64,000 nucleotides of DNA from Oscillospiraceae bacterium (GTDB taxonomy: Bacteria > Bacillota > Clostridia > Monoglobales > WRAG01): contig WRAG01000001.1 of the NCBI GenBank assembly GCA_009780345.1, positions 7,267 to 71,266 of the forward strand, given 5' to 3'. Positions 5,382-56,388 of this stretch are shown piece after piece. The translations under genes were made by a program, and so were the position numbers. The notes below the pieces were generated by a model. It was not told where the DNA came from and ran no database searches. It saw nothing but the letters and a program-made list of their open reading frames with translations. Each line of letters begins with the position of its first letter. The first letter of the stretch is position 1.

Positions 5382-6311
5382 CTATTTCACCTCGATTATC
5401 GTTCCTTTTAGATACTCCAACTCACCCGCGGGAGTGGTAAAGTTGAAAATAAGCTTGTATGCTTGCAACTCTTGATGTTTCTGCGTTTTATCGTTGTATC
5501 GCACGTTGCTGTTGTACTTGCCGTCGCCGACAAGGGGATGCCCTATATGCGCAAATTGCGCGCGGATTTGGTGGGTTCGCCCGCTGATCAATTGCACTTC
5601 AATCAGCGTGTCATTGCCGTCAAAGCTGATCGTTTTGTAGCGGCTAACCGCTTTCGATGTGCCGATTTTCGGCTTGTCGTAAGCGTATACGCGGTTTTGC
5701 TTGCTGTCTTTAAACAGATAGTGTACCAGCTCGCCGCTTTGCGGCGCGATTTTGCCGCGAACCTTGGCGAGATAGAATTTGTCGATCTCGCGGTGTTTGA
5801 TTTTATCGTTTATAACCCGCAACGCCTCGGCGGTTTTCGCGGTGATTACAAGTCCGGCGGTGTTTCGGTCGATTCGATGGCATAGCGCCGGCGCGAACGA
5901 CTGCTCCGCCTCGGGGTGATACTCGCCCTTTTGATAGAGATACGCTTGCACGTAGTTGATCAGCGTGTGACGCCGCTCGTTTGCGTCTTCGTGGCAAAGC
6001 AAGCCCGCAGGCTTGTTGGCGACGAGTATATAATCGTCCTCGTATACGATGTCTAGTGAAAATTTTATGTTTAAAATACCTATATTATTTTCGGTTTCGA
6101 AGAATTCGTCGTTGATGTAAAGCTGTAGCTTGTCGTCAAGCTGAAGCTTGTAGGAGATGTCTGATTTTTTGCCGTTGACTTTGATACGCCCTTTGCGGAT
6201 TCCTTTGTATATCAGACTTTGCGGGGCGCTTTCAAGATATTTGAACAGAAACTTGTCAAGCCGCTGGTTCGCGTCGTTTTTTTGGATAATTATTTCCCGC
6301 AAAGTATTCAC
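5382..6311 (-). CDS. RluA-family 23S rRNA pseudouridine synthase with N-terminal S4 domain
   Basis: S4-like N-terminus (RLDKFL...), catalytic HRIDRNTAGL motif, GRTHQIRAQ motif. Confidence 0.9.
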   Translation of the reverse strand: MNTLREIIIQKNDANQRLDKFLFKYLESAPQSLIYKGIRKGRIKVNGKKSDISYKLQLDDKLQLYINDEFFETENNIGILNIKFSLDIVYEDDYILVANKPAGLLCHEDANERRHTLINYVQAYLYQKGEYHPEAEQSFAPALCHRIDRNTAGLVITAKTAEALRVINDKIKHREIDKFYLAKVRGKIAPQSGELVHYLFKDSKQNRVYAYDKPKIGTSKAVSRYKTISFDGNDTLIEVQLISGRTHQIRAQFAHIGHPLVGDGKYNSNVRYNDKTQKHQELQAYKLIFNFTTPAGELEYLKGTIIEVK

Positions 6312-9027: not shown

Positions 9028-9792
9028 ATGCTTTTAGCAATTGACGTTGGAAATACAAATATTGTCGCGGGAATTTTTCAAAACGACAAATTAATCGCAA
9101 ATTTTCGCATGGCAACCGATAAGCAGAAGTCGTCAGACGAAATCGGCTTGCTTATGACGCAGCTTCTCTCTCTTGAGGGAATCGACAAATCCAACATAGA
9201 AGATATTATAATATCGTCGGTTGTGCCGCCGGTTATGTATTCGCTGACCAACGCTTGCCGCCGATATATCGGGCGAGAGCCGCTTATCGTCGGGCAGGAT
9301 ATTTTACCCGATATCAACGTGAGATACGATAATCCGAAAGAAGTCGGCGCGGACAGAATCGTAAACGCGGTTGCCGCGCGGGCGAAGTACGACTCGCCCC
9401 TCGTTATCGTCGATTTCGGAACGGCGACAACGTTTTGCGCTATCGACAAGAACGGCGACTATCTCGGTGGCGTGATTGCGTCGGGAATAAAAATTTCGAT
9501 GGATGCGCTTTTCGAAAAAGCCGCGAAGTTGCCACGGATTGAGATAGTTAAGCCAAATAAAGTGATTGGAACGAACACGGTCGAGTCTATGCAATCGGGC
9601 GCGGTTTACGGATATGTAGGGCAGGTTGAGTATATCGTCGGGCGGATTAAGGAAGAACTCGACGCGCCGAATAGTAAGGTTGTCGCCACAGGCGGACTTG
9701 CGGCGCTAATCGCCCAACATACCGACAGCATTGATTTTGTGGATAGACTACTGACGCTTGAGGGGCTGAGGATGATATATTCGGGGGTTTAG
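9028..9792 (+). CDS. coaX: Type III pantothenate kinase
   Basis: MLLAIDVGNTNIVAGIF...GADRIVNAVAA...VDFGTATTF, CoaX motifs. Extended -10 TGgTATAAT at 9000-9008 argues against the upstream GTG of the ORF track. Confidence 0.9.
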   Translation: MLLAIDVGNTNIVAGIFQNDKLIANFRMATDKQKSSDEIGLLMTQLLSLEGIDKSNIEDIIISSVVPPVMYSLTNACRRYIGREPLIVGQDILPDINVRYDNPKEVGADRIVNAVAARAKYDSPLVIVDFGTATTFCAIDKNGDYLGGVIASGIKISMDALFEKAAKLPRIEIVKPNKVIGTNTVESMQSGAVYGYVGQVEYIVGRIKEELDAPNSKVVATGGLAALIAQHTDSIDFVDRLLTLEGLRMIYSGV

Positions 9793-9819
9793 GGCGGATG
9801 CCCTAAAAAGGAGAAAATC

Positions 9820-10659: not shown

Positions 10660-10667
10660 GTTTTCGC

Positions 10668-10753
10668 AAAATTGAGTGCAGTTTGGGTTTTGGACTGATT
10701 GCCGCGTATCTTGTATACGCAAGTGAGGGAAAAACCCGAAATGTGCCAATTTT
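10668..10753 (-). repeat. Family B repeat, short form, inverted orientation
   Basis: AAAATTGAGTGCAGTTTGGGTTTT...CCGCGTATCTTGTATACGCAAGTGAGGG...CGAAATGTGCCAATTTT. Mirror image of the forward copies at 45303 and 53527. Confidence 0.8.
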
Positions 10754-10781
10754 ATGAAAACACTAGGAAAGAGGAAAAAAC

Positions 10782-12463: not shown

Positions 12464-13276
12464 ATGAAAGTATACGCCTTAGTCGGCGCGAGCGGAACCG
12501 GCAAAAGTCATCACAGCATGTTTGCCGCCAAGCAATTGGGCGCGGAATGTATGATTGATGACGGTCTTCTAATCGCCAATCATCAAATTGTCGCGGGAAA
12601 ATCCGCCAAACAAGAGCCGACCAAGATGGCGTCGGTTCGCCGCGCTATATTTTCAAGTCAAACTCACCGTGACGAAGTGCGCCTTGCGATTGAAAAACAT
12701 AAATTTCGGTCTATTCTAATTATCGGAACGTCGGACAGAATGGTTTCGCAAATCGCGAGCGGTATCGGAGTCGGCGAAATTGACGAAATCATCCGAATCG
12801 AAGATATCCGAACCGAAGATGAGATCGAGCGGGCAAAAAATATTAGGTTTAAGCAGGGAAAGCACGTAATTCCCGTTCCAACTTTCGAGGTGAAGAAGCA
12901 TTTTTCGGGATATTTTATGCACCCGCTCGCGATGTTGAGCAAAAACAAATCTACTTATCGAGTGGAAGAAAAAACGGTAATGCGCCCGACTTACAGCTAT
13001 CTCGGGCATTTCGAGATCTCGGATAAGGCGATTATCGACATCTGCGCGTATAAAGCGCGGCAGAATTCGGAAATTACACGAGTTTTAAGGGTTGGCGTCC
13101 ATATGCTCAGCGATAAAAGCGTCGTGATTGACGTTGACGTTGTAATGAAATTTCCGAATAAGATTCATATTGTGGGGCGAGAGCTTGCGGATGTAATCCG
13201 CACCGATGTGGAGGAGCATACTTCCATCAATGTTAGAAAAATCAGAATAAACGTAAAGGGACTGCGGTTTGAGTGA
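12464..13276 (+). CDS. P-loop NTPase fused to a C-terminal Asp23/Gls24-like domain
   Basis: N-terminal Walker A VGASGTGKSH. The C-terminal ~110 aa follow the Asp23 pattern (ISDKAIIDICAYKA...VIDVDVVMKFPNKIHIVGRELADVIRTDVEEHTSINVRKIRINVKGL). Start set at ATG 12464 after AAAGGAGC. Confidence 0.8.
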   Translation: MKVYALVGASGTGKSHHSMFAAKQLGAECMIDDGLLIANHQIVAGKSAKQEPTKMASVRRAIFSSQTHRDEVRLAIEKHKFRSILIIGTSDRMVSQIASGIGVGEIDEIIRIEDIRTEDEIERAKNIRFKQGKHVIPVPTFEVKKHFSGYFMHPLAMLSKNKSTYRVEEKTVMRPTYSYLGHFEISDKAIIDICAYKARQNSEITRVLRVGVHMLSDKSVVIDVDVVMKFPNKIHIVGRELADVIRTDVEEHTSINVRKIRINVKGLRFE

Positions 13277-13390
13277 AATCACGCAATCTTCCGCCGAAAC
13301 TTCGCCTGCAAAAAGTCCTCAACGTATAGCCCATACGCCTGCGGCTTTTCGAGGCTCGTTTCGACGAAATATTACGCAATTTGACACAAA
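13268..13390 (+). repeat. Family A repeat (A1 core), forward
   Basis: TTTGAGTGAAATCACGCAAT...GTCCTCAACGTATAGCCCATACGCCTGCGG...TTACGCAATTTGACACAAA. The left end contains the upstream gene's last codons and its TGA stop. Confidence 0.9.
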
Positions 13391-13404
13391 CCGGAGGAAT
13401 AAAA

Positions 13405-14235
13405 ATGGTAGAAATTGATTTAGGATTTGCGCCGAATTTGGAGCATATTTTCGAGTGCGGGCAGTGCTTTCGCTGGAATATGCAGCCGGACGGCTCGTAT
13501 ATCGGAGTTGCCGGCGGCGAAGCGGTTCGCGCAAGCGTATGCGGAAGCAAACTAACGTTAGACGGCACCGATAACACCGAATTTTGGTCGAACTACTTTG
13601 ATACGGCGTTCGATTACGAGGGCGCGAAAACCAAGTTCAGCAAAGATAAAATTTTGAAAAAATGTATCGAATACGGTTATGGAATCAGAATTTTGCGGCA
13701 AGATTTGTTTGAGACGATTATTTCCTTTATTATTTCAGCGAATAATAATATTCCAAGGATTAAAAAGATTATCGAAAATTTATGCCGCATTTGCGGCGAG
13801 AGAATTGAGTTTGATGGTAATGAATACTACACTTTCCCGACGGCGGAGGCGATTGTAAACGCGGGTTTAGAGAAACTTTCGACAATTCATGCCGGTTATA
13901 GGGATAAGTACATACTTGGCGCGGCGCAAGCGGTGCTGAATGGAGATGTAAACTTAAATGAAATTGTCGCGCTTCCTACCGACGCGGCACGACGGGAATT
14001 ATTGAAAATTATCGGAGTTGGCCCGAAAGTCGCGGATTGCGTTTTGCTGTTTGGAATGTCACGGTTTGACGTGTTTCCGTCCGACGTTTGGATTAAGCGG
14101 ATTTTGGATGAGGCGTATAACGTTCCGCCGAAAGAAATTTGTGAATTTGCGGAGAATAAGTTCGGCAAGTATCGCGGATTGGCGCAGCAGTACCTATTCT
14201 ACTACTATCGAGATAATATGAAAAAGCTTGCGTAA
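13405..14235 (+). CDS. ogg: 8-oxoguanine DNA glycosylase / HhH-GPD family (Ogg-type)
   Basis: CGQCFRW near the N-terminus, ISANNNIPRIKKII, HhH-GPD GVGPKVADCVLLFG...FPSDVWIKRI. ATG 13405 follows GGAGG. Confidence 0.85.
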   Translation: MVEIDLGFAPNLEHIFECGQCFRWNMQPDGSYIGVAGGEAVRASVCGSKLTLDGTDNTEFWSNYFDTAFDYEGAKTKFSKDKILKKCIEYGYGIRILRQDLFETIISFIISANNNIPRIKKIIENLCRICGERIEFDGNEYYTFPTAEAIVNAGLEKLSTIHAGYRDKYILGAAQAVLNGDVNLNEIVALPTDAARRELLKIIGVGPKVADCVLLFGMSRFDVFPSDVWIKRILDEAYNVPPKEICEFAENKFGKYRGLAQQYLFYYYRDNMKKLA

Positions 14236-15256: not shown

Positions 15257-15826
15257 ATGTTTTTGAGCCGCCACGGCGGCGGGTTTTTAGGGCTTTGCCC
15301 TAAAAACCCATTTGTTCGGGTCAGACCCAGAAGCTTGTGTCCTGCCGGACGGGCGGTAAGGGCTCTGCCCTTACCAATCCCGGTCGCCTATGGACGCAAA
15401 CGCCAAAAAGCGGCGATTTGCGCCAAAGCCGGCGACGATAAAAGCATTGGTTAGCGAACCGCGTTCGCGGAAAGACTAGCGAGATATAGCACTGTTTCGA
15501 TCGAGCATGCGGCTTTTGCCGCCGTAGTTATTTGACTAATACCGTATATGTTTGCACTATTTTAGCGGCGCGTTTACAATAGCGCGAAAGCGCGTGTGCG
15601 CTGCAAGTTTGGTAAAACTTTTTAAAGTTTTTTGGGGATTGACAAGGGTTTCAATAAACCCTTGTCGTCCTGCCCTGACAAGGGCAAAAAGCTGCAGAGC
15701 CTCGCTCTGAAAAAGGGTTTTTAGGGCATTCGCCCTAAAAAAACCCGCGCCCATTGGGCGCAAGAATTTTGATAAAACTTTTTCCAAAAGTTTTTAGGTT
15801 TTTAGGGCAAGGCCCTAAAAAAGGAG
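15257..15826 (-). repeat. Family C long composite palindromic repeat, copy C3 (inverted relative to C2/C4)
   Basis: Reverse complement is colinear with C2. Hairpins include GGGTTTTTAGGGCTTTGCCCTAAAAACCC, GACAAGGGTTTCAATAAACCCTTGTC and GCGCCCATTGGGCGC. Ends in GCCCTAAAAAAGGAGG just before ATG 15834. Confidence 0.85.
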
Positions 15827-15833
15827 GATTCCT

Positions 15834-18160: not shown

Positions 18161-20461
18161 CTACACATCCTTCATCGTCAGCGAAATCCTCATCTTCGCG
18201 ACATCAACATCAAGAACTTTCACTTTCACTATATCACCGACGGCGACAACGTCCATCGGGTGTTTTACAAATTTGTCCGCCAACTGCGAGATATGGACAA
18301 GCCCGTCTTGGTGAACGCCAACATCCACGAACGCGCCGAAGTCAATAACGTTGCGCACCGTACCTGTCATAATCATTCCGGGTTTCAAATCCTTGATATC
18401 CATAACATCGTCGCGCAAAACCGGCTGTTCAATATCATCGCGCGGATCTCGTCCCGGTTTTTGCAGCGATTCGACAATGTCACGTAAAGTGGGAACGCCG
18501 ACTTCGATTTCTTCTGCAAGCTTTGTCATATCAGCGCGTTCAGCCTTTTCTTTTAGCAGCACAAGCTTGCCGGCGTTCACGTCGTCCATCGTATATTCCA
18601 ATTTTTCAAGCAACTTTTCTGCCGCGGCGTATGACTCGGGGTGAACCGACGTGTTGTCGAGTATATTTTTCCCTGCGGAGATTCGCATAAATCCCGCGCA
18701 CTGCAAAAACGCTTTCGCGCCAAGCTTTGCAACCTTTAAAAGCTCTTTTCGCGTCTTAAATGCGCCAACTTCCTCGCGGTATGCCACAATATTTTTCGCC
18801 ACCGTTAAATTTATCCCGGAAATATAGCTCATAAGCGCGTAGGACGCGGTGTTTAGGTCAACTCCGACATCGTTTACGCAATCTTCGACAACGCCACCCA
18901 ACGCCTCGCCCAACCGTTTCTGATTTACGTCATGCTGATACTGCCCGACGCCCACGTTTTGCGCGTCGATCTTTACAAGCTCGGCAAGCGGATCTTGCAA
19001 CCGCCGACCGATTGAAATCGCGCCACGGATTGTTACGTCAAAATCGGGGAACTCCTCCGCGCCCTGCTTTGATGCCGAATAAATTGACGCGCCTGCCTCG
19101 TTGACAATTGCGTATTTCACGTCGCTAAAACCGAACTCTCGAATCGTTTCGGCAATAAAAATTTCGCTCTCTTTCGACGCCGTGCCGTTGCCGATTGCGA
19201 TTAGCGTTACGCCATGTTTGTCTACCATTCGTTTAACGAACTTCTTCGCCTCAGCGATGCGGGCGTCTGATTGTGTTGGATAAATCACGCCGCTATCAAG
19301 CACTTTCCCCGTTTCGTCCACAACCGCCATTTTGCAGCCCGTTCGATATCCCGGGTCAAGCGCAAGCACAACTTTCCCTTTGATTGGCGGCTGCATAAGC
19401 AGGTTTTTCAAGTTTTCCTTGAATACCTTTATCGCTTGCTCTTCCGCAACAACCGACAGTTCCCCGCGGATTTCGTTGGCGATGGAAGGTTCAATCAGCC
19501 GTTTATAGCTATCCTCGACGGCAGCTTCGACATAGCTCGTGGTGATCGAAAATGTTTCACGTGAAACATCGTCACGACAAACTGCGCTTTGCTCGTTTTC
19601 GGACACAAACCGTCCGAAAAGCTCACTCGCTTCGTTGTCGCTCCTCTTTCCCAAAACGTCCACTTCGTTGGGGCGTTTTGGGAGCTCTTTTAAAATCTTC
19701 CTTTTCAAATATGCCAAAATTTTATCAATCGGCGGATCAATTTTGACGTTTAGAAATTCTTCTTTCTCACCGCGGTTGATCGCCAAAACTCTGTGCGGCT
19801 GCACTTTGCAAACCGGCTCGGAATATTCATAATACAGCCGATAAACGCTGTCCTCCTCTTTTGCTGCTTTCGATTCAAGCGTTCCGTCACGGAAAGTTAC
19901 ATCGCGGATAGCCTTTCTAAACTCCGCGTTATCCGAAACGTCCTCGGCGATAATATCGCACGCTCCCGCAAGCGCGTCCTCGGCGGTTTTGACTTCAAGC
20001 CCCTCTTTTACATCGTCGCCTACGTTAATATATTCGCTTGCGATTTCTAAAATGTCGCCGTCGACAAGTTCCTGCGCCATCAAAATTTCAGCAAGCGGCT
20101 CAAGCCCGCGTTCCCGCGCAATCATTGCGCGTGTGCGACGTTTGGGTTTGTACGGACGATAAATATCTTCGATTTCGGCAAGTTTCTCCGCTTTATCGAG
20201 GGCGGCGTTGATTTCGTCGGTCATTTTGCCTTGTTCGTCGATTAGGCGGCGAACTTCCTCGCGGCGATCGTTGAGATTGCGTAAGTAAGTAAGCCTGTCG
20301 AATACGTCGCGAAGCGTAACATCGTCAAGTTCGCCGGTTGCCTCCTTTCGATAGCGGGCAATGAACGGAATGGTGTTTCCGTCGTCGATAAGCTCGACAA
20401 ACGCCTCTATTTGCTGGCGTTTTAGATTGAATTCTTGCGTTAAAATTTGTATGATATCCAT
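18161..20461 (-). CDS. tex: Transcription accessory protein Tex (S1 RNA-binding domain protein)
   Basis: 766 aa. N-terminal Tex domain (IPFIARYRKE), YqgF-like and HhH domains, C-terminal S1 domain (GTVRNVIDFGAFVDVG). Confidence 0.93.
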   Translation of the reverse strand: MDIIQILTQEFNLKRQQIEAFVELIDDGNTIPFIARYRKEATGELDDVTLRDVFDRLTYLRNLNDRREEVRRLIDEQGKMTDEINAALDKAEKLAEIEDIYRPYKPKRRTRAMIARERGLEPLAEILMAQELVDGDILEIASEYINVGDDVKEGLEVKTAEDALAGACDIIAEDVSDNAEFRKAIRDVTFRDGTLESKAAKEEDSVYRLYYEYSEPVCKVQPHRVLAINRGEKEEFLNVKIDPPIDKILAYLKRKILKELPKRPNEVDVLGKRSDNEASELFGRFVSENEQSAVCRDDVSRETFSITTSYVEAAVEDSYKRLIEPSIANEIRGELSVVAEEQAIKVFKENLKNLLMQPPIKGKVVLALDPGYRTGCKMAVVDETGKVLDSGVIYPTQSDARIAEAKKFVKRMVDKHGVTLIAIGNGTASKESEIFIAETIREFGFSDVKYAIVNEAGASIYSASKQGAEEFPDFDVTIRGAISIGRRLQDPLAELVKIDAQNVGVGQYQHDVNQKRLGEALGGVVEDCVNDVGVDLNTASYALMSYISGINLTVAKNIVAYREEVGAFKTRKELLKVAKLGAKAFLQCAGFMRISAGKNILDNTSVHPESYAAAEKLLEKLEYTMDDVNAGKLVLLKEKAERADMTKLAEEIEVGVPTLRDIVESLQKPGRDPRDDIEQPVLRDDVMDIKDLKPGMIMTGTVRNVIDFGAFVDVGVHQDGLVHISQLADKFVKHPMDVVAVGDIVKVKVLDVDVAKMRISLTMKDV
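19553..19568. promoter_or_regulatory. parS: parS site (inside tex coding sequence)
   Basis: TGTTTCACGTGAAACA, a perfect 16-bp palindrome matching the Firmicutes parS consensus tGTTNCACGTGAAACa. Confidence 0.8.
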
Positions 20462-22749: not shown

Positions 22750-23992
22750 GCCGGAGGTTGTGAAAGCCGGGCTTTCGCGGCGCAGGGAAGATACCGGGCG
22801 GATAGATGAAATTATAGCATTAGACGGCAGACGGCGGGAAATTTTGTTTGAAGTTGAGCAAATGAAAGCGCGGCAAAATACCGTGTCGAAAGAGATTCCG
22901 CAGTTGAAGAAAGCGGGCGAAGACACAACAGCAATTTTTGCCGAAATGAAAGATCTGTCCGATAAAATTAAGCAATTTGATGAACAGTTGCGTGAGATTG
23001 ATGGTGAGATTGAGGCGATTGCGCTGCAACTTCCGAATTTGCCACATGAAAGCGTTCCCGACGGAACGAGCGACGAGGATAATGTTGAGGTTCGCAAGTG
23101 GGGCGAGGCGCCAAAGTTTGATTTCGAGCCGAAAGCGCATTGGGATATTGGCGAGGGATTGAATATTCTTGATTTTGCTTGCGGGGCAAAGGTTACGGGG
23201 GCGCGGTTTACGGTGTATCGCGGGCTTGGGGCGCGGTTGGAGCGCGCGTTGATTAATTTCTTTCTTGACACGCACACCGAAAACGGCTATACCGAGGTTT
23301 TACCGCCATTTATGGTACATAGAGCGAGTATGATGGGGACGGGGCAGTTGCCGAAGTTTGAGGAGGACGCGTTTAAAATTTCCGGCAGCGATTATTTTCT
23401 TGTTCCGACGGCGGAAGTGCCTGTTACCAACATGTTGCGGGATGAGATTGTTGCGGGTGACGAGCTTCCTATTAAATATACCGCGTATTCGGCGTGTTTC
23501 CGAAGCGAAGCGGGAAGCGCGGGGCGAGATACGCGCGGGCTTATTCGGCAGCATCAATTTAATAAAGTCGAGCTTGTGAAGTTCGCGAAACCGGAGCAGT
23601 CGCCGGACGAACTTGAGCGGTTAACCGCCGACGCGGAGCGGATTTTGCAGTTGTTAGGATTGCCGTATCGTACGGTTAAGCTTTGCACCGGAGATTTGGG
23701 ATTCAGCTCGGCGATGACATATGATATTGAAGTTTGGATGCCGAGTTATGGGCGGTATGTCGAGATTTCGTCGTGCAGCAACTTTTTGGACTTCCAAGCG
23801 AGGCGCGCGAATATCAAGTTTAAGGAAAATCCCGCCGATAAGGCGCAGTTTGTGCACACATTGAATGGTTCGGGCGTTGCGGTCGGGCGCTCTGTCGCTG
23901 CGATTTTGGAGAATTATCAGAATGAGGACGGAAGTGTGGTTGTGCCTGAAGTTTTGCGGAAGTATATGAGTGTAGAGGTGATAGGGCGGTAG
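22721..23992 (+). CDS. serS: Seryl-tRNA synthetase
   Basis: MLDIKLIR... N-terminal coiled coil. Class II motifs ([32 protein letters not shown]). Confidence 0.97.
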
Positions 23993-24478
23993 CCCTAAAA
24001 CCGCGAGGTTGTCTTACGCTGACAAGCGCATATGTGCGGCTGCTGCCGCAGAGCGATAAGGACTTGTCGAAGCCCTTGTCAAGCCCCGAAAAACTTTAAA
24101 AAGTTTTATCAAACAGGCGGCGCAAACGCGCTTTCGCGCTATTAAAAGCGCGCCGCTACAAAAGGACTGCAAACAAATTGCACATCAATTAAGTAACTAC
24201 GGCGGCAAAAGCCGCCATCTTGAGCAAAAATTCGTCCCGCGCCTAGAAGCGCGAGATATTGTTTGGTTAGGAGTGAGTTGATTGCACTTGCTTCCGCGCC
24301 ACGTGCGCTCGGTTTTTGAGCGTGTTCGTGAGCGCGGCGCTTTTGATCAAACTTTTGGCGCACAAAAGTTTGCTGGATTGTCAAGGACTGGTCCTTGCCG
24401 CGTCTGCGCGTGCCCGCGCAAAGCCTGCCGCCGTAGCGGCAAAAACTCGCGCCCGTTGGGCGCAAAAAGGAGCAATCT
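23982..24478 (+). repeat. Family C long composite palindromic repeat, copy C4
   Basis: Begins with hairpin TAGGGC-GGTA-GCCCTA, which contains the serS stop codon. Colinear with C2 (…CCCTTGTCAAGCCCC…GGCGGCGCAAACGCGCT…GGCGGCAAAAGCCGCC…). Ends GCGCCCGTTGGGCGCAAAAAGGAGC before the thyA ATG. Confidence 0.85.
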
Positions 24479-25310: not shown

Positions 25311-25611
25311 TTTGCGTGAAATCACGCAATCTTCCGCCGAAACTTCACCCACGAAAAATCCTCAACGTACCATTTGTACGCCTGCGGAAACAAGACGCCA
25401 TTAAAAGTTTTGTGAAACAAAACATACATAAATGGCGTTTCAACGGCGGTTTTTGCCGTTCTTTTTCGGGGCTCGTTTCGGCGGAATCTGGGAGAGTTGT
25501 CAAAAACTTGTTTTTGCTAACAACTCCCCTGTGAAAACTGCCCAAGAGAGCAAGGCGATTTTTGCCGCCGCTTAATTGGCTGCAGTTGACCACCACGCAA
25601 TTTGACGCAAA
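25311..25611 (+). repeat. Family A repeat, composite (A1 core with nested insertions including module F)
   Basis: Starts TTTGCGTGAAATCACGCAAT directly after the thyA TAG and ends CACGCAATTTGACGCAAA before the folA RBS. The interior carries GGGAGAGTTGTCAAAAACTTGTTTTTGCTAACAACTCCCC, which is also seen at 40426 and 54117. Confidence 0.85.
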
Positions 25612-27710: not shown

Positions 27711-27740
27711 CTTGCGTGAAATCACGCAATTTGACGCAAG
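27711..27740 (+). repeat. Minimal family A unit (both ends, no core)
   Basis: CTTGCGTGAAATCACGCAATTTGACGCAAG is the left end joined directly to the right end. Confidence 0.75.
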
Positions 27741-37057: not shown

Positions 37058-37180
37058 TTTGCGTGAAATTACGCAATATTCCGTCGAAACATCGCCCACA
37101 GAAAATCCTCAACGTATAACCCATACGTCTGCGGTTTTCCGGGACTCGTTTCGACGAAATATTACGCAATTTGACGCAAA
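37058..37180 (+). repeat. Family A repeat (A1 core), forward, in the rpsJ leader
   Basis: TTTGCGTGAAATTACGCAAT...AATCCTCAACGTATAACCCATACGTCTGCGG...TTACGCAATTTGACGCAAA. Confidence 0.9.
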
Positions 37181-37210
37181 ATTAAGAATTTTATTAAGGA
37201 GGGCTATTTT

Positions 37211-37519
37211 ATGGCGGCAGAAAAAATTAGAATCAGACTTAAATCTTACGATCACAATTTGGTTGATCAATCGGCGGCGAAGATCGTGGATACCGCAACG
37301 AGAACGGGGGCGAAAATTTCGGGTCCTATTCCGTTGCCGACGAAGAAGGAGATTATCACTATCCTTCGCGCGGTGCATAAGTACAAAGACAGCCGTGAGC
37401 AGTTTGAACTGAGAACGCACAAACGTTTGATTGATGTTTTGGGTCCGACGGCGAAAACGATTGACGCGCTGAAGAACTTGGATTTACCGGCGGGCGTTGA
37501 TATTGAAATTAAGATATAA
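37211..37519 (+). CDS. rpsJ: 30S ribosomal protein S10
   Basis: [18 protein letters not shown]...GPIPLPT...[14 protein letters not shown]-like sequence. Confidence 0.98.
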
Positions 37520-37521: not shown

Positions 37522-37644
37522 TTTGCGTGAAATCACGCAATCTTTCGTCGAAACTGCAATGACGAAAAATCCTCAACGTATCACATATACGCCTGCGGTT
37601 TTTCGCATCTTGTTTCAACGAAATCTCACGCAATTTGACGCAAA
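37522..37644 (+). repeat. Family A repeat (A1 core), forward
   Basis: Starts 2 nt after the rpsJ TAA. Central hairpin CGTAT-CACAT-ATACG. Ends CACGCAATTTGACGCAAA. Confidence 0.9.
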
Positions 37645-38349: not shown

Positions 38350-38595
38350 TTTGCGTGAAATCACGCAATCTTTCGCAGAAACTGCGAGGACAAAAAGTCC
38401 TCGACGTATAACTCATACGCCTGTGGCTTTTATATGGAGGGCTCCCAAAAAACGAGAGCCATTGCTCGAAATTTTTTGGGAAAGAGGAGCCGCCGCACGC
38501 AAGGCGAAGCTTTTGCCACGATTTTTGTGGCAAAACGAGCAACGAGTGCGAGTGGGGACGATGTTTCGACGAAATCTCACGTAATTTGACGCAAA
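38350..38595 (+). repeat. Family A repeat, composite (A1 core with a nested ~120-bp module E)
   Basis: Starts immediately after the rplC TAA. The insert GGAGGGCTCCCAAAAAACGAG...TTTTTTGGGAAAGAGGAGCC... (from 38437) is related to modules at 45697, 48040, 52305 and 56175. Ends TCACGTAATTTGACGCAAA. Confidence 0.88.
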
Positions 38596-40391: not shown

Positions 40392-40403
40392 TTATTTTCG
40401 TCA

Positions 40404-40792
40404 AATTGGCACATTTTGAATTTTTGGGAGAGTTGTCGAAAACTTGTTTTCGCTAACAGCTCCCCTGCAAGGCTTTCCAAAGAGCATGAGTCGTTTGTTG
40501 ACGAAGTGCGATTTGCTGAAAGCTACTGCCGCCCACTTGCGTACTTTGTGTACGCGGCGTGGCAGGGCGCGCAAAAGCGGCGCGGCTTTAAATGAGACTT
40601 GGCTTTGCTGATTTTTGCAAAGTCATAGCCGAATTATGCAGGGGCGTAACATTTTGTAAAACAAAATGCACAGCCATCTGCCAAAATTCAAACTGCACGC
40701 AATTTGACGAAAATATGAGATTTGGTTTCACGCAATTTGACGCAAATTTTAGGAATTTGACAAAAATGTGGAATTTGGGTTTATGCAATTGA
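40404..40792 (+). repeat. Family B repeat, large composite (B core with nested modules F and G, plus extra A-type right-end half-sites)
   Basis: AATTGGCACATTTTGAATTTTT, then module F (GGGAGAGTTGTCGAAAAC...), CCCACTTGCGTACTTTGTGTACGCGGCGTGG, then module G (TTTAAATGAGACTTGGC...), AAAATTCAAACTGCACGCAATTTGACGAAAA, TCACGCAATTTGACGCAAA. Confidence 0.88.
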
Positions 40793-41115: not shown

Positions 41116-41238
41116 TTTGCGTGAAATCACGCAATCTTTCGCCGAAACTTCACCTGCGAAAAATCCTCAACGTATAACCCATACGCCTGCGGTTTTTCGA
41201 GACTTGTTTCGCCGAAATCTTACGCAATTTGACGCAAA
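41116..41238 (+). repeat. Family A repeat (A1 core), forward, near-consensus copy
   Basis: TTTGCGTGAAATCACGCAATCTTTCGCCGAAAC...AATCCTCAACGTATAACCCATACGCCTGCGG...GTTTCGCCGAAATCTTACGCAATTTGACGCAAA. Confidence 0.92.
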
Positions 41239-41289
41239 CCGTGTTTGTGTCTTGAATAAAATGTATTTTACAAAATAGAGGTGAAAGTT

Positions 41290-43674: not shown

Positions 43675-44043
43675 ATGGTACAGCAACAGTCAATTTTAAA
43701 GATTGCCGATAATAGCGGAGCGAAAGAAATTATGTGTATCCGTGTTTTGGGCGGTTCGGTTCGACGATATGGCAATGTTGGCGACGTTATTGTTGCGTCG
43801 GTTAAGAAAGCCGCGCCGGGCGGAGGAGTTAAAAAAGGTGAAGTTATCAGAGCCGTTATCGTGCGCACCGTTAAAGGTGTTAAGCGAAAAGATGGTTCGG
43901 TTATTAAATTTGACGAAAACGCGGCGGTTATTATCAGAGAAGATAAAAACCCGAGAGGTACGCGTATATTCGGACCTGTGGCACGTGAGTTAAGAGACAA
44001 GGAGTATATGAAAATTATATCCTTGGCGCCTGAGGTTTTATAA
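43675..44043 (+). CDS. rplN: 50S ribosomal protein L14
   Basis: [28 protein letters not shown]. Confidence 0.98.
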
Positions 44044-44045
44044 AA

Positions 44046-44244
44046 TTTTGGCACATTTCGGATTTTTCGCCCACTTGCGTACTTTATGTACGCGGCGTGG
44101 CAGGGCACACAAAAGCGGTGTGGCTTTAAATGAGACTTGACTTTGTTGGATTTTGCAAAGTCATAGCCGAATTATGCAGGGGCGTAACATTTTGTAAAAC
44201 AAAATGCACAGCCATCTGCCAAAATCCAAACTGTACTCAAAATT
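44046..44244 (+). repeat. Family B repeat with nested module G
   Basis: TTTTGGCACATTTCGGATTTTTCGCCCACTTGCGTACTTTATGTACGCGGCGTGG, then module G (near-identical to 40583-40682), then AAAATCCAAACTGTACTCAAAAT. Confidence 0.88.
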
Positions 44245-44279
44245 TTATAAAACAAATTAGTGGTTTAGGAGGAAAAAAC

Positions 44280-44628: not shown

Positions 44629-44729
44629 TTTGTGTCAAATTGCGTGAGATTTCGGCGAAAACGCAAGGAGCGTGTATACAGATACCCGACGAAGCGGTTT
44701 CGGCGGAAGGTCGCGTAATTTCACGCAAA
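44629..44729 (-). repeat. Family A repeat (A2 core), inverted
   Basis: TTTGTGTCAAATTGCGTGAGAT...GGAGCGTGTATACAGATACCCGAC...CGCGTAATTTCACGCAAA. Confidence 0.88.
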
Positions 44730-44756: not shown

Positions 44757-45293
44757 ATGAGATTGCAAGAGAAATATAAAAGCGAAGTTGCGCCGGCGAT
44801 AATGAAAAAATTTGGATATAAAAGCGTTATGCAAATTCCGAAGCTTGAAAAAGTCGTTATCAACATGGGCGTAGGGGACGCGAAAGATAATGCTAAAGCA
44901 ATTGAAAGCGCCGTTGCGGACTTGGCGGCAATTACCGGACAAAAGCCTGTTATCACTAGGGCGAAAAAGTCGGTTGCGACGTTTAAAGTTCGTGAAGGCA
45001 TGAACATTGGTTGCAAAGTTACTTTGCGCGGAGAGATGATGTACGATTTTGTGCAACGGCTGTTTAACGCTGCTTTGCCGCGCGTGCGTGACTTCCGCGG
45101 AATCAGCGCGGACGCTTTTGACGGACGCGGTAACTATTCTATGGGAATTAAAGAGCAGTTGATTTTCCCGGAGATATCTTATGATAAGATTGATAAAATC
45201 AGAGGTATGGATATTATATTCGTTACCACAGCTAATACGGACGAAGAGGCGAAAGAGTTGTTAACTCTTATGGGAGCACCGTTTAAGAGCTAA
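44757..45293 (+). CDS. rplE: 50S ribosomal protein L5
   Basis: [40 protein letters not shown]. Confidence 0.98.
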
Positions 45294-45302
45294 TTTATTT
45301 TT

Positions 45303-45405
45303 AATTGGCACATTTTGAATTTTTCGCCCCCTTGCGTACCTATGTACGCGGCAGGGCAAGGCGCGCAAAAGCCGCGCGGCGCCAAAATCCAAACTGCGCT
45401 CAATT
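45303..45405 (+). repeat. Family B repeat, short form, forward
   Basis: AATTGGCACATTTTGAATTTTTCGCCCCCTTGCGTACCTATGTACGCGGCAGGG...GCGCGCAAAAGCCGCGCGGCGCCAAAATCCAAACTGCGCTCAATT. Confidence 0.88.
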
Positions 45406-45463
45406 AAAAATAAATTATGAAAATTATGTTTTTAATTAGCAAGGAAGGAGTGGTTGTTAGACT

Positions 45464-45649: not shown

Positions 45650-45881
45650 TTTGCGTGAAACTACGCACATTTTGGATTTTTCGCTCCCTTGCGTGCAAGG
45701 GCTCCCGCAAAGTCGGTTTGTGACTTTGTGGGAAAAAGGAGCAACAGCGCAATATGCGAAATTTTCGGACGGTTTTTGTCCGAAAACGAGTAAGGTGGAG
45801 CTTGTTGTGACGGCGGCGGGACACAGCGCGCCCAAAATCGGCGCGGCATCAAAATCCAAACTGCACGCAGTTTAACACAAA
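45650..45881 (+). repeat. Long family B variant framed by family A-type ends (B ends plus module E core)
   Basis: Starts directly after the rpsN TAA with TTTGCGTGAAACTACGCA fused to CATTTTGGATTTTT. The core is ...CAAGGGCTCCCGCAAAG...GGGAAAAAGGAGCAAC... It ends AAAATCCAAACTGCACGCAGTTTAACACAAA. Confidence 0.88.
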
Positions 45882-46352: not shown

Positions 46353-46545
46353 GAAATTAGATTAAAAAGTTGGGCGAATACGCAAAATTAGGTCAGATTT
46401 TGTGAAACACGAGCGTCGCTGTATAAATATACAGCAGTCGAAGTGTTTCACAAAAAACAAAAATGCAAAATCTAATGGCTTGCAAAGCAAGCCTACCCGA
46501 AATATAAATGCTTTGCATTTTTGTGGTGTGACCAATTTTGAGGAT
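46353..46545. repeat. Structured intergenic element (A2-like hairpin core plus conserved block D)
   Basis: Hairpin GTGAAACACGAGCGTCGCTGTATAAATATACAGCAGTCGAAGTGTTTCAC, hairpin GGCTTGCAAAGCAAGCC, and the 35-nt block AAATGCTTTGCATTTTTGTGGTGTGACCAATTTTG (46506-46540), which is identical to 56400-56434. Confidence 0.75.
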
Positions 46546-47995: not shown

Positions 47996-48228
47996 TTTGT
48001 CTGAACTTGGCATATTTTGAATTTTTCGCCCTCTTGCGTACAAGGGTTCCCGAAACGCCCCAACGAAGTGGACGTTTTGGGAAAAAGGAACAACAAACGA
48101 AGTGTTCGAGCTTTTCAGACGGTGTTTGTCTGAAAACGAGTGAAGCGAAGTTTGTTGTGACGGCGGCGAGGCACAGCGCGCAAAGACAGCGCGGCTCCAA
48201 AATTCAAACTATGCTCAATTTCAAACAA
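47996..48228 (+). repeat. Long family B variant (B ends plus module E core)
   Basis: TTTGTCTGAACTTGGCATATTTTGAATTTTTCGCCCTCTTGCGTACAAGGGTTCCCG...GGGAAAAAGGAACAAC...CCAAAATTCAAACTATGCTCAATTTCAAAC. Colinear with 45650 and 56130. Confidence 0.85.
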
Positions 48229-48284
48229 ACTGTCAGCATAATGCTAATGCTAATTTAGTTTGGCATTGAAAGGAAGAGTTAAAA

Positions 48285-48582: not shown

Positions 48583-49017
48583 ATGAACTTAAACGAACTA
48601 TCTCCGAGTATTGGTCGTAAGAAAAAATTCCGTGTTGGTCGCGGTCACGCGAGCGGAAACGGAAAGACCTGCGGAAAAGGACATAAAGGACAAAATTCAA
48701 GATCGGGCGGCGGAGTTCGTCCCGGATTTGAGGGCGGACAAATGCCGCTTCACAGAAGGCTTCCGAAACGCGGATTTACCAATATATTCGCGAAAGAATA
48801 TGTGGAAGTGAACGTTTCTGACCTTAACAGATTTGAGGGTAACGAAGTTACCGCCGAAGCTTTGAAAGCGGCGGGAATTATCTCGAAAATTAAGGATGGA
48901 ATCGTTATCTTAGGGCGCGGCGAGCTTGAAAAAGGCTTGACTGTTAAAGCGAAAAGATTCAGTAAATCAGCAAGCGAAAAAATAACAAAAGCCGGCGGCA
49001 AAACAGAAATAGTTTAG
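48583..49017 (+). CDS. rplO: 50S ribosomal protein L15
   Basis: [37 protein letters not shown]. Start at ATG 48583 after AGGAGAG. Confidence 0.97.
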
Positions 49018-49102
49018 TTTAATCGAGTGCAGTTTGGTGTTTGGACTGACCGACGTGTACATTGGGTACATGAGGGAGGGAAAACGCCAAAATGTGCCGA
49101 GT
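49018..49102 (-). repeat. Family B repeat, short form, inverted
   Basis: TTTAATCGAGTGCAGTTTGGTGTTTGGACTGACCGACGTGTACATTGGGTACATGAGGGAGGGAAAACGCCAAAATGTGCCGAG. Confidence 0.8.
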
Positions 49103-49128
49103 AAACTAAACCGCTTAGGAGGATTACT

Positions 49129-50444: not shown

Positions 50445-50567
50445 TTTGCGTGAAATCACGCAATCTTTTGTCGAAATTACGTGGTCGGAAAATCCTCAAC
50501 GTATAACCCATACGCCTGCGGTTTTCCGCCACTTATTTCAACAAAATCTCACGCGATTTGACGCAAA
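50445..50567 (+). repeat. Family A repeat (A1 core), forward
   Basis: TTTGCGTGAAATCACGCAAT...AATCCTCAACGTATAACCCATACGCCTGCGG...TCACGCGATTTGACGCAAA. Confidence 0.9.
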
Positions 50568-50593
50568 TTTTGAATAAAAGGTGGTGGGGACTT

Positions 50594-52022: not shown

Positions 52023-52316
52023 ATGGAAGATATAACCTTAAAATTAGGAGATATTGTTTTTTCCAAGGCGGGGCGGGATATGAATCGCCATTACATTGTG
52101 ATGAGGATTGCTGAGCCTTATATTTGGACTTGTGACGGAGATTTACACAAGGTTGAGAAATTCAAGAAAAAGAAGATCAAACATACCAAATATATGGGTT
52201 GTCAATCTGAATATATAAAAAACAAGCTGACCGGCGGTGAAAAGGTTACAAACAGCGAGATTCGCCGAGCTATTTCGGAGTTTGTTGAGAGTGAACAAGA
52301 GGGAGAGGGCTCCTGA
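52023..52316 (+). CDS. KOW-domain RNA-binding protein (map-infA linked)
   Basis: LGDIVFSKAGRDMNRHYIVMRI KOW-like motif. The last codons and stop lie in repeat module E. Confidence 0.8.
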   Translation: MEDITLKLGDIVFSKAGRDMNRHYIVMRIAEPYIWTCDGDLHKVEKFKKKKIKHTKYMGCQSEYIKNKLTGGEKVTNSEIRRAISEFVESEQEGEGS

Positions 52317-52470
52317 AAAATGAGGACCTAAGTCCGAAATTTTTTGGGAAAAAGGAGCAACCCCGGAGCGCATGAGCTTTTGGGGTAGGTAATGATGGTT
52401 GGCATTTATGCCAACAATTACATTGCATCATTTCAACACGATTTGTGTGTTCTTTTTGCCACAAAACGAA
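52305..52470. repeat. Module E-related structured element
   Basis: GAGGGCTCCTGAAAAATGAGG...GAAATTTTTTGGGAAAAAGGAGCAACC... parallels 38437-38490. It is followed by hairpin GGTTGGCATTTATGCCAACAA. Confidence 0.65.
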
Positions 52471-53514: not shown

Positions 53515-53526
53515 TATTTGATAATT

Positions 53527-53626
53527 TTTGGCACATTTTGAATTTTTCGCCCACTTGCGTACCTTTGTACGCGGCGTGGCACAGTGCGCAAAAGCAGCGC
53601 AGCTCCAAAATTCAAACTGCACTCAA
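53527..53626 (+). repeat. Family B repeat, short form, forward
   Basis: TTTTGGCACATTTTGAATTTTTCGCCCACTTGCGTACCTTTGTACGCGGCGTGGCACAGTGCGCAAAAGCAGCGCAGCTCCAAAATTCAAACTGCACTCAAAA. Confidence 0.88.
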
Positions 53627-53684
53627 AATTTATCAAATATAGCAGAAGTTAATTGATTTTATTCGAATTGAGAGGTGAGCAAAA

Positions 53685-54086: not shown

Positions 54087-54294
54087 TTTTCGCGAAATTG
54101 GCACATTTTGAATTTTTTGGCGAGTTGTCGAAAACGAGTTTTCGCTAACAACTTCCCTGCAAGGCTTTCTAAAGAGTACGAGTCGTTTGTTGACGAAGTG
54201 CGATTTGCTGAAAGCTACTGCCGCCCTCTTGCGTACTTTTGTACGCGGCGTGGCATAGCGGGCAAAAAATCCAAACTGCGCTCAATTTCACAAA
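54087..54294 (+). repeat. Family B repeat with nested module F
   Basis: TTTCGCGAAATTGGCACATTTTGAATTTTTT, then module F (GGCGAGTTGTCGAAAACGAG..., colinear with 40426-40527), CCCTCTTGCGTACTTTTGTACGCGGCGTGG, AAAAAATCCAAACTGCGCTCAATTTCAC. Confidence 0.88.
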
Positions 54295-54342
54295 AATCAT
54301 GTTTGTGAATTTTAAAATTTTTCGTATTGATAAGATTTTAAA

Positions 54343-54464
54343 TTTGCGTCAAATTGCGTGAGATTTCGTTGAAACAAGAGTCGGAAAACCGCAGGCGTAC
54401 ATCAAGTACGTTGAGGATTTTGCGGCTCGCAGGTTCGGCGAAAGGTTGCGTGATTTCACGCAAA
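54343..54464 (-). repeat. Family A repeat (A1 core), inverted
   Basis: TTTGCGTCAAATTGCGTGAGAT...CCGCAGGCGTACATCAAGTACGTTGAGGATT...TTGCGTGATTTCACGCAAA. Confidence 0.9.
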
Positions 54465-55178: not shown

Positions 55179-56129
55179 TTGATTGAGATAGAAAGACCGA
55201 GAGTAGAACGGGTGAATTCCGATTCGGATAACGTGCATGGCGTATTTGTGGTCGAGCCGTTAGAGCGTGGATACGGAATTACCCTTGGGAACTCACTTCG
55301 CAGGATACTTTTGTCGTCACTTCCCGGTGTTGCGGTTACTTCCATCAAGATTGAGGGAGTTTTGCACGAATTTTCTACCATTCCGGGAGTGAAGGAAGAT
55401 GTTACCGAGATTGTGCTTAATATCAAAGGGTTGCTTGCGAAACTTCATTCGGAAGGTATGAAAACTCTTTACATTGACGCGCAAGGCGAGGGAGCGATTA
55501 CCGCCGGAGATATTAAAAAGGACGCGGATGTTGAAATCCTAAATCCTGAGCATCACATCGCGACATTGACGTCGGACGCGCGGCTTTACATGGAAATTAC
55601 CATAGACAAAGGGCGCGGATACGTTGCGAGCGAAACGAATAAGCAGATGATGCAACCTGTGATTGGCGTTATTCCGACCGACAGTATTTACACGCCGGTA
55701 AGGAAAGTGAATTACACGGTTGAAAATACGCGCGTTGGAAACGTTACCGACTTTGATAAGTTGACAATTGATGTTTGGACAGACGGAACAATTGATCCGT
55801 CGGACGCGATAAGTCTTGGCGCGAAAATTATGAACGAGCACCTTAACTTGTTTATCGACCTTTCGGAAAATGCGAAAAACGCTGAAATTATGGTCGAAAA
55901 GGAAGAGAACAAGAAAGAAAAAGTGCTTGAAACCACAATCGAAGAGCTTGATTTGTCGGTTCGTTCGTATAATTGCTTGAAGCGCGCGGGAATTAATACG
56001 GTTCAAGATTTGACGACCAGATCGGAAAACGACATGATGAAAGTTCGGAATCTTGGGCGAAAATCGCTTGAGGAAGTTATCCATAAGTTGTTGGGGATGG
56101 GACTTTCGCTGGCGAAAGACGAAGAGTAG
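55179..56129 (+). CDS. rpoA: DNA-directed RNA polymerase subunit alpha
   Basis: [18 protein letters not shown] and C-terminal domain [19 protein letters not shown] start. Confidence 0.97.
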
Positions 56130-56358
56130 TTGCGCCAAATTACGCACATTTTGGATTTTTCCGCCCCCTTGTGTACAAGGGCTCCCGCAAAGTCGGTTTG
56201 TGACTTTGTGGGAAAAAGGAGCAACAACGGAACATGCGAGGTTTTCGGACGGGTTTTGTCCGAAAACGAGCAAAGTGGAATTTGTTGTGACGACGGCGGT
56301 GCATGGCGCCCAAAAGCGGCGCGGCGTTAAAATCCAAACTGCACGCAATTTGACACAA
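56130..56358 (+). repeat. Long family B variant framed by family A-type ends
   Basis: Starts directly after the rpoA TAG with TTGCGCCAAATTACGCACATTTTGGATTTTT. Contains ...GTACAAGGGCTCCCGCAAAGTCGG...GGGAAAAAGGAGCAAC... and ends AAAATCCAAACTGCACGCAATTTGACACAA. Colinear with 45650-45881. Confidence 0.88.
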
Positions 56359-56388
56359 CTACAAGAATAACAGTGATATAAAATTTTG

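Follow-up and report, generated by a model that had tools for sequence, protein, structure and literature searches.

Foldback repeats supply stop codons and C-terminal codons at some gene junctions in an uncultured gut Clostridium

Can a small repeat write the last codons of a bacterial gene and leave the gene that follows in working order? The question is raised by nine nucleotides, TTTGAGTGA, at positions 13268-13276 of a 64-kb stretch of contig WRAG01000001.1 (assembly GCA_009780345.1), hereafter the window, where the end of a P-loop/Asp23-family coding sequence (CDS), the Asp23 fusion, falls on the initial 9 nt of a repeat copy of family A at 13268-13390. The initial annotation proposed that the ends of such repeats supply stop codons and C-terminal codons to core genes and abut the Shine-Dalgarno sequences of the genes that follow. 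The window is a Clostridia chromosome segment with a GC content of ~45%, whose gene content includes coaX-holB, the Asp23-fusion gene, ogg, serS, thyA-folA, and the whole S10-spc-alpha ribosomal protein operon, and the host is an uncultured gut Clostridium. Among metagenome contigs in ENA, ERZ27257297 k141_1483450 represents the window itself, identical across the shared range, while a sister organism with ~90% DNA identity was found in ERZ27257300 and JGI 3300009826. A GTDB scan with L6 gave a best match of 73% identity, the species itself being absent. Comparison was thus made at two levels, with distant element-free relatives and with the close sister, which has a different set of insertions; the material consists of this single window and a few short sister contigs.

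The CDS 12464-13276, which has a Walker A motif, GASGTGKS, near the N terminus of its translation, ends with CTG CGG TTT GAG TGA. It has 120 homologues, and the closest element-free ones finish with GL[RK]FND. In element-free relatives of 75-78% identity the end is AGG TTT AAT GAT TGA, encoding GLRFND, and the ATG of ogg (whose product has Pfam OGG_N and HhH-GPD domains) lies inside it in an 8-nt overlap; in the sister the protein ends with GLTMNGRN and the overlap is 14 nt. In the window 128 nt separate the two genes, and the upstream protein finishes with RFE. The family A copy is absent from the same junction in the sister (L083) and in the relatives L085 and L087. The comparison of the CDS end with those of relatives therefore assigns the Glu codon and the stop to the element, whose TTT coincides with the native Phe TTT, and the proposal that the left end of a family A copy holds the closing TTT GAG TGA of the gene is borne out by both the sequence and the relatives. 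When family A is entered by its G-end, frame 0 reads TTT GCG TGA, frame 1 is open for 41 codons, and frame 2 meets a stop at codon 20; both stops that are supplied by an A terminus, that of the window Asp23 fusion and that of adk in the sister, use the frame with the stop at codon 3.

Self-comparison of the window showed repeat DNA in nearly every long intergenic region, consisting of several families of small non-coding, hairpin-folding repeats nested in one another. Family A has the termini RTTTGCGTGAAAT...ATTTGACGCAAAY (in longer form, TTTGCGTGAAATCACGCAA... and ...ACGCAATTTGACGCAAA) and occurs in size classes of 123 nt and 103 nt, in longer nested forms, and as a minimal unit of 30 nt that equals both ends fused; in its left-end consensus, TTTGCGTGA, the TGA is invariant in nine of the nine aligned copies. 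Family B, which has the outermost motif in common with A, is built of 13-nt outer arms plus GGCACATTTTGAATTTT / AAAATYCAAACTGCRCTCAA, and module E/F is found inside A, inside B, alone at the 3' end of the KOW protein gene, and inside the Tex gene. The fourth repeat type is a hairpin unit of 20-30 nt with the arms TTTAGGGC/GCCCTAAA, and mosaics of ~470 nt combine a hairpin unit GGGTTTTTAGGGC-N3-4-GCCCTAAAAACCC with further GC-rich hairpins of small size. Terminal inverted repeats TTTGCGTSAAAT.../...ATTTSACGCAAA (the terminus motif is also written RTTTGCGTSAAAT), the ends of which pair mutually, were found on more than 20 copies of 100-350 nt. Both families, A and B, form end-to-end hairpins (z-scores of -4.4 to -5.1), and among nine A copies compensatory double changes were observed at 9 of 39 stem pairs, internal stems included. 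The base flanking TTTG...CAAA is complementary to its opposite partner in 16 of 17 copies, where 6.7 are expected, so the true termini are R-TTTGCG...CGCAAA-Y. Positions -3/+3 are still complementary in 10 of the 17 (P = 0.02), and complementarity of the flanks generally fades past 3 nt.

A search of the whole window against Rfam 15 gave no match at gathering thresholds, and a permissive search (E <= 1) gave chance-level matches only, such as a plant microRNA model on an A copy. A sub-threshold match to Alpha_RBS (53091-53178, 27.3 bits vs a threshold of 38), which lies upstream of rpsM and overlaps a 30-nt minimal A unit, is probably due to chance. Distant BLAST searches of a plasmid collection with A and A/B copies found no match, and a literature search on the terminal sequences found no paper. 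The hairpins were also considered as terminators or promoters, and this reading was rejected for lack of any excess of terminator-like or promoter-like sites (terminator-like sites numbered 26 vs 25 ± 5.6 in shuffles). In the hairpin TTTAGGGC...GCCCTAAAA the run of T is located upstream and that of A downstream, which is not the form of a Rho-independent terminator.

Three more genes named by the initial annotation end in repeat DNA. The KOW gene ends at 52305-52316 with GAG GGC TCC TGA, within a repeat copy (52305-52358 matches 38437-38490). Here a segment of ~160 nt starting with GGCTCCTGA follows ...EQEGE, so that the window protein gains GS and a stop and loses a 10-residue tail. The sister allele is empty and encodes 103 residues with the end ...EKGEASPLKEGSVE (in longer form, ...AEFESEKGEASPLKEGSVE), overlapping infA by TAATG, and the ancestral 3' end persists in the window at 52471-52492 as the now non-coding region of the infA ribosome-binding site. 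The location of the KOW stop inside module E is confirmed, and the empty allele has a different C terminus. Similarly, serS ends with ATA GGG CGG TAG (23981-23992) in the hairpin TAGGGCGGTAGCCCTA (23982-23997), as had been noted, and the window protein finishes with VEVIGR vs VEVIK in relatives; 11 close relatives have V[ED][VIM]I[KSM] at the end, and L092 reads ATA AAA TGA. The coaX gene ends at 9784-9792 with GGG GTT TAG in the hairpin TTTAGGGCGGATGCCCTAAA, the 3' arm of which leads into AAAGGAG, 7 nt ahead of the holB ATG. This agrees with the initial annotation except that the hairpin occupies 9788-9807, one base off the 9787-9806 first given. CoaX finishes with IYSGV in the window vs IYEGR or IYEGK in relatives, and the element-free L093 reads TAT GAG GGC AGA TAG. 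In the sister coaX this hairpin is displaced by one base relative to the frame, so that the gene is predicted to continue for 34 further codons into a mosaic.

The alignment of the Asp23 fusion, SerS, CoaX, and KOW proteins with repeat-free orthologues shows that the last residues differ where the repeat covers them; since the orthologues have other C termini, a merely coincidental similarity to the element ends can be set aside for these four proteins. HolB is an additional case: the window protein ends with DEVKQNYNK and an inverted B follows directly, while relatives have DEVRRDR, RR, or RRAK at the end, and their holB overlaps PSP1 or adjoins it. In the sister, adk ends with GGA ATT GCG TAA within an A/B terminus, giving GLGIA vs ELGVTD, and map gains a new start region. 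Two side observations concern the coaX-type hairpin and its neighborhood. A second hairpin unit, at 15797-15833, has a 3' arm that leads directly into a Shine-Dalgarno sequence, GGTTTTTAGGGCAAGGCCCTAAAAA|AGGAGGATTCCTATG, in an arrangement like that at coaX/holB. The coaX-holB gap of the sister (L083 1024-1964) holds ~920 nt absent from the window, comprising a hairpin mosaic and an open reading frame (ORF) of 135 residues with a predicted zinc-ribbon-like N terminus and hydrophobic segments.

In the S10-spc-alpha operon 20 of 31 junctions exceed 100 nt, and the same junctions are mostly ~12-60 nt long in 15 related genomes. S10, S14, L14, S11, S13, S17, and SecY keep C termini and stop positions exactly as in the 15 element-free relatives, the element starting 0-8 nt past the native stop. 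The elements said to start 0-4 nt after the stops do so, at distances of 2 nt for rpsJ, 0 for rplC, 4 for rpsS, 0 for thyA, 0 for rpsN, and -1 to 0 for rpoA. Right ends were described as lying a few nucleotides before the ribosome-binding site, and this is correct for ogg (2 nt to the Shine-Dalgarno sequence), folA (3 nt), and rplD (~9 nt), but not for rpsJ (~16 nt). The broader claim that the elements have remodeled the 3' ends of essential genes likewise stands for the Asp23 fusion, KOW, SerS, and CoaX and fails for the seven proteins of the operon just named. Because these seven proteins keep their native ends, remodeling is confined to overlapping or nearly overlapping junctions, where the changed protein ends amount to 1-10 residues.

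At five junctions the native stop, with as many as two native codons, lies within the arms of the element, namely at rplN (16 nt), rplO (14 nt), rplE (17 nt), rpoA, and the sister rpmD (L110 515-622), and the distal arm is the exact reverse complement of the enclosed native codons. The native rplN sequence GTTTTATAA is also present in the element-free L003. At the sister rpmD, of which the window allele is empty, the terminus has changed from GCG/CGC to AAA/TTT on both arms, three base pairs together. At rplO/secY, where relatives have a gap of 0-3 nt, a new secY Shine-Dalgarno sequence lies 4 nt past the element. The coordinates of the elements are collected in Table 1.

Table 1. Repeat elements and associated features of the window, in window coordinates
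Feature	Position	Strand	Remarks
Hairpin unit TTTAGGGC-GGAT-GCCCTAAA	9788..9807	.	Holds coaX stop (TAG 9790-9792) in 5' arm
Short family B, inverted	10660..10761	-	Directly after holB stop; comparison with relatives
P-loop/Asp23-family CDS ending in element	12464..13276	+	...KGLRFE, then stop; Pfam Asp23, residues 210-267
Family A foldback element, class 1, 123 nt	13268..13390	+	Copy list, termini; hairpin -30.7 kcal/mol
Shine-Dalgarno GGAGG and ogg ATG	13393..13407	+	GGAGG 2 nt past element right end; junction comparison
E/F copy in frame in Tex gene (18161-20461, minus)	19569..19692	-	~41 residues added, ELPKRPNEVDVLGKRSDNEASELFGRFVSENEQSAVCRDDV
serS-stop hairpin TAGGGCGGTAGCCCTA, then ~470-nt mosaic of small GC-rich hairpins	23982..24468	.	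Reaches up to thyA ribosome-binding site
Long family A, 301 nt	25311..25611	+	0 nt past thyA TAG; ends 3 nt ahead of folA Shine-Dalgarno
30-nt minimal unit, A termini fused	27711..27740	.	Between two minus-strand genes, 4 nt after upstream stop
Family A	37522..37644	+	2 nt after rpsJ stop; also in sister L090
Family A with nested E/F module	38350..38595	+	0 nt after rplC stop
Composite family B	40395..40746	+	3 nt after rplB stop
Family A	41116..41238	+	4 nt after rpsS stop
Family B	44035..44253	+	16-nt perfect arms 44035-44050/44238-44253 enclose rplN GTT TTA TAA
Family A class 2, inverted	44629..44729	-	19 nt after rplX stop, 11 nt before rplE Shine-Dalgarno
Family B	45291..45417	+	17-nt perfect arms include rplE stop TAA
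A/B hybrid with E/F module	45650..45881	+	0 nt after rpsN stop
Family B with E/F module	47996..48229	+	1 nt after rpsE stop
Short inverted family B	49012..49111	-	Arms 49012-49025/49098-49111 enclose rplO GTT TAG
Family A	50445..50567	+	8 nt after secY stop; sister site empty (34-nt spacer)
Inserted segment, module E and further hairpin	52308..52470	+	Gives GS and TGA to KOW ORF (52023-52316)
Family B	53517..53637	+	2 nt after rpsM stop
Family B (54087-54296) and inverted A (54343-54464)	54087..54464	.	B 3 nt after rpsK stop; A 8 nt before rpsD Shine-Dalgarno
A/B hybrid	56126..56362	+	40-nt arms begin G TAG, enclosing rpoA stop

Some other features of the operon were noticed in passing. S5 (47476-47994) finishes with GIKLS in both the window and the sister vs GKKPEEILG in all relatives, and is four residues shorter. 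S3 (265 residues) and L16 (206 residues), encoded at 41632-43049, have low-complexity C-terminal extensions, Pro/Arg-rich and Ala/Lys/Glu-rich, respectively, that are far longer than usual for those proteins. A 35-nt repeat, AATGCTTTGCATTTTTGTGGTGTGACCAATTTTG, unrelated to A and B, is located at 46506-46540 and 56400-56434, upstream of rplF and rplQ.

Save for a few isolated motif matches, the ribosomal operons of relatives are free of the repeats. Internal repeats are missing from L003-L005, the closest relatives in GTDB, and genuine element copies among relatives are confined to B-like ones in L013 and L018. These two are rabbit- and mouse-gut Clostridia bins with ~70% L6 identity, in which B-like elements with the core GGCACATATCGGATTTTT...AAAATCCGAWCTGCACTCAA (L013 ~15640-15740 and the secY end; L018 ~5390-5500) stand directly after the stops of rpmJ, secY, and rpsS. 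An exact scan of metagenome contigs with a 20-nt A terminus returned 13 stretches, most of them from the sample series of the sister contigs, while four lie in DNA of 48-55% GC and look unrelated.

The sister contigs give direct evidence of mobility. The sites at Asp23 fusion/ogg, holB/PSP1, rplC/rplD (where the sister genes overlap by 8 nt), KOW/infA, and secY/adk are filled in the window and empty in the sister, and those at rplW/rplB, adk/map, rpmD/rplO, and inside ogg are filled in the sister and empty in the window. Because the sites filled in one genome are empty in another of ~90% identity, the elements must be mobile now or have been so recently, with insertion or loss taking place over a short time. 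Copies inside genes are the E/F copy in Tex and a B-type one in the sister ogg, both in frame. The sequence of the Pseudomonas aeruginosa Tex structure aligns to residues 13-240 and 319-764 of the window protein, with ~36 extra residues between, and the sister ogg element (L083 6334-6474) adds 23-26 residues relative to the window and two outgroups and leaves the ORF intact. As for the mechanism of movement, the window, the sister contigs, and the 13 metagenome hits yielded neither a transposase nor a full-length partner element, and the 64 kb showed no RAYT (Y1 transposase) gene. The flanks gave no sign of a target-site duplication, the longest direct match of 16-nt flanks averaging 3.8 nt vs 3.9 nt in shuffled pairings. 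Apparent duplications were rejected: the dinucleotides of TA...TA and CG...CG flanks are palindromic, and flanks of the AA...TT type reveal an inverted rather than a direct relation. A junction duplication of 13-15 nt at rplC/rplD and Asp23 fusion/ogg is too diverged to call, and copying of the outer B arms from the target was rejected for the rplW/rplB copy, the empty window allele lacking that sequence.

The placement of the elements is not random. The initial annotation had called for a test of the distance from stop codon to element, which we ran within the window, taking the non-element remainder of each spacer as the available space with uniform placement and keeping 12-15 nt for the ribosome-binding site. 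The element lies within 4 nt of the stop at 15 of 20 curated junctions, where 4.5-5.6 are expected, and 200,000 simulations never produced as many as 15; elements lie a median of 2 nt from the stop, compared with 28.5 nt from the next start. Stop-adjacent placement thus exceeds chance. The bias is weaker or absent for inverted class 2 A copies, which lie 18-45 nt from the stop and 4-11 nt from the next Shine-Dalgarno sequence, and weaker for the extra copies on other contigs, at 0-45 nt and more from the stop.

The reading that accounts best for these findings, and that we regard as probable, is survivorship of those insertions that bring an immediate in-frame stop and keep a Shine-Dalgarno sequence past the other arm. 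The stop bias would then probably be mainly the trace of purifying selection on the position and frame of insertion. Nearly all persisting elements are located between a stop codon and the Shine-Dalgarno sequence that comes next. At junctions with an ancestral spacer, the element starts 0-4 nt after the native stop and leaves the protein unchanged. Where the genes ancestrally overlapped or abutted, as at Asp23 fusion/ogg, holB/PSP1, KOW/infA, and rplO/secY in the window and adk/map in the sister, insertion fell in the last codons of the upstream gene. In the survivors at such sites the reading frame runs into a stop no more than ~3 codons from the element end, and a Shine-Dalgarno sequence is either retained or restored just past the other arm. 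The end-to-end pairing of each element places the stop on one side of the stem base and the Shine-Dalgarno sequence on the other; by bringing the two together the hairpin might preserve the translational coupling of the operon, which could be why elements are tolerated. The trimming of elements by selection to a tolerated footprint, which the initial annotation had offered as one explanation, finds no support, as the copies have complete termini and it is the position that varies.

Several observations weigh against survivorship as the whole explanation. Elements hug the stop even where 50-100 nt of spacer lie downstream (rpsJ/rplC, rplB/rpsS, rpsN/rpsH, rpoA/rplQ), and the base outside the terminus is complementary to its partner in all but one of the 17 copies. 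The arms enclosing native codons and stops at five junctions point to some sequence-level interaction with the target. The inverted class 2 A copies stand 18-45 nt from the stop, neither a transposase nor a target-site duplication was found in the available DNA, and the DNA examined amounts to 64 kb plus a few short sister contigs.

One alternative, to which we give a rather low probability, is that insertion is actively directed to stop-adjacent sequence, either through microhomology of the GTTT/TTTG terminus with a Val-stop or T-rich, TAA-adjacent sequence, or toward short palindromic targets such as TAA|TTA, GTAG|CTAC, and CGG|CCG. The complementarity of the flanking bases at -1/+1 (16 of 17) and -3/+3 (10 of 17, P = 0.02) would be expected from such a preference, yet it fades beyond 3 nt, the left flanks have no common consensus, and no consistent target motif emerges. 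The arms that enclose native GTT TTA TAA (rplN), GTT TAG (rplO), GTT TAA (sister rpmD), and G TAG (rpoA), together with the coincidence of native and element TTT at the Asp23 fusion, are suggestive of microhomology, while the empty alleles lack the predicted palindromic target. TAAA, TAGA, or TAG precedes four of about six copies that do not adjoin a gene stop, and the B-like elements of other genera also stand directly after TAA; on the other hand, inverted copies put the same terminus beside a Shine-Dalgarno sequence, and additional copies lie 18-187 nt from stops.

Another alternative, which seems distinctly unlikely, is that the elements benefit the host in a REP-like manner, the stop-proximal RNA hairpins tuning upstream translation, stabilizing mRNA segments, or setting the stoichiometry of ribosomal proteins. 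REPs of E. coli that lie under 16 nt away from a stop codon stall ribosomes and lower translation, according to Liang et al. 2015 as cited in PMC12306157. The conservation of the hairpin by compensatory changes, also in internal stems, would agree with such a role, but changes of this kind are equally expected if the termini must match for mobility. Family B shows an orientation bias of ~10:1 in the sense of transcription, and B-like sequence is conserved in distant gut Clostridia at comparable positions; nevertheless, L003-L005 lack internal repeats, and no relative other than L013 and L018 has elements, B-like in both. That sites are filled in one and empty in the other of two ~90%-identical genomes argues against an indispensable role at any one junction, and the in-frame copies in Tex and the sister ogg look like selfish spread.

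A further possibility, likewise held with little confidence, is that the elements are coupling-preserving insertions, in which the hairpin stays intact even where an arm overlaps native codons, the distal arm having been rewritten to mirror those codons and the stop. This might come about by intra-palindrome correction or by integration guided by homology (microhomology to GTTT-like ends), or else because selection favors stems with the stop codon inside them; in that event a ribosome terminating there would open the stem by melting and so be handed over to the Shine-Dalgarno sequence across the hairpin base. If true, coupling-preserving insertion would be an undescribed interplay of a selfish repeat and operon translation. 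Least probable is that the pattern merely follows from operon compactness, in which case spacers of 15-25 nt would force nearness to both the stop and the ribosome-binding site and the element-end overlaps would be coincidental: relatives do have spacers of ~12-30 nt at many junctions, and residual spacers of 17-25 nt nearly force the geometry at thyA/folA, rplC/rplD, rplN/rplX, and holB/PSP1, but this reading is largely refuted by the filled/empty comparisons and by the placement test, in which the excess persists with the 12-15-nt footprint excluded (15 vs 4.5-5.6). Nine junctions have 42-104 nt left downstream of an element 0-4 nt from the stop, and the Asp23 fusion, KOW, SerS, and CoaX have their stops in sequence shared by homology among the repeats and absent in relatives.

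Precedents for stop-proximal repeats exist in several known systems. REP, BIME, and REPIN sequences, including the GTAG- and CGTC-tagged ones, are likewise short palindromic units in mosaics (Di Nocera et al. 2013, PMC3733652). Like the window elements, REPs are found mostly downstream of coding regions in operons and make no target-site duplication, and the window elements share with REPs and REPINs the palindromic units and the long end-to-end hairpin. GTAG-REP termini can supply TAG stops (Di Nocera et al. 2013, PMC3733652). About half of the E. coli REPs in one study are located 15 nt or less from a stop and reduce translation (Liang et al. 2015, as cited in PMC12306157), and the stop-proximity of the window elements resembles that of the many E. 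coli REPs described in the same source as lying 15-20 nt or less from the stop and affecting translation. The window elements differ from REPs in being longer (100-350 nt) and nested, in having RTTTGCG... termini in place of a GTAG/CGTC tag, and in residing in a Clostridium rather than a proteobacterial host; GTAG is found only where a TAG stop precedes the element (thyA, rpoA).

QMITE1 and QMITE2 of Coxiella burnetii provide a second parallel, as copies of them share 1-50 bp with the 3' ends of functional genes (Wachter et al. 2018, PMC5896051). The C terminus of enhC is supplied by a MITE in one Coxiella strain, and an indel gives an earlier stop in another (PMC5896051), a strain difference that matches the one between the window and sister coaX. 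QMITEs differ in their terminal direct repeats, which were not found on the window elements, in sequence family and host, and in that no saturation of a ribosomal protein operon is reported for them (PMC5896051). RPE, ERIC, and Correia sequences are palindromic repeats with one open frame that are fused in frame in conserved protein genes (Delihas 2008, PMC2229807), just as E/F is in frame in Tex and B in the sister ogg. Their sequences are unrelated, and the window elements are mainly intergenic and flush with stops rather than intragenic. Classical DDE-derived MITEs are similar in small size, terminal inverted repeats, high copy number, non-coding nature, and the occurrence of filled and empty sites, which in closely related genomes is also the general mark of a mobile element; for the window elements, however, no direct target-site duplication, partner insertion sequence, or match in the plasmid collection was detected. 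By analogy, the elements appear to work like the REP, QMITE, and RPE/ERIC/Correia precedents. The repeat family is new and undescribed, the phenomenon itself is known, and it is the host and the density that are unusual.

The findings call for caution in the annotation of metagenome-assembled genomes because gene callers translate such repeats and extend genes through them. Spurious repeat ORFs of 49-117 residues (LREITQS...FRRNLTQFDA, LAHFEFF...) recur, for example at 13269-13418, 37059-37412, 41117-41278, and 50446-50577. Automatic gene calls also run through repeats in thyA, called from 24282, and in the sister coaX, called with 294 residues (327 in the JGI copy) vs 255 in the window.

The expansion of 20 of the 31 junctions of the S10-spc-alpha operon indicates that small selfish hairpin repeats can invade the most conserved and tight operons without breaking them. 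The window and its sister offer a natural series of filled and empty alleles that shows what happens when an element lands in an overlapping stop/start junction: the stop comes to be provided by the element end, the tail of the protein is altered by 1-10 residues, and the Shine-Dalgarno sequence is kept or re-formed past the other arm. These observations extend to gut Clostridia a phenomenon that has been documented mostly in Proteobacteria, in the REP, ERIC, Correia, RPE, and QMITE repeats.

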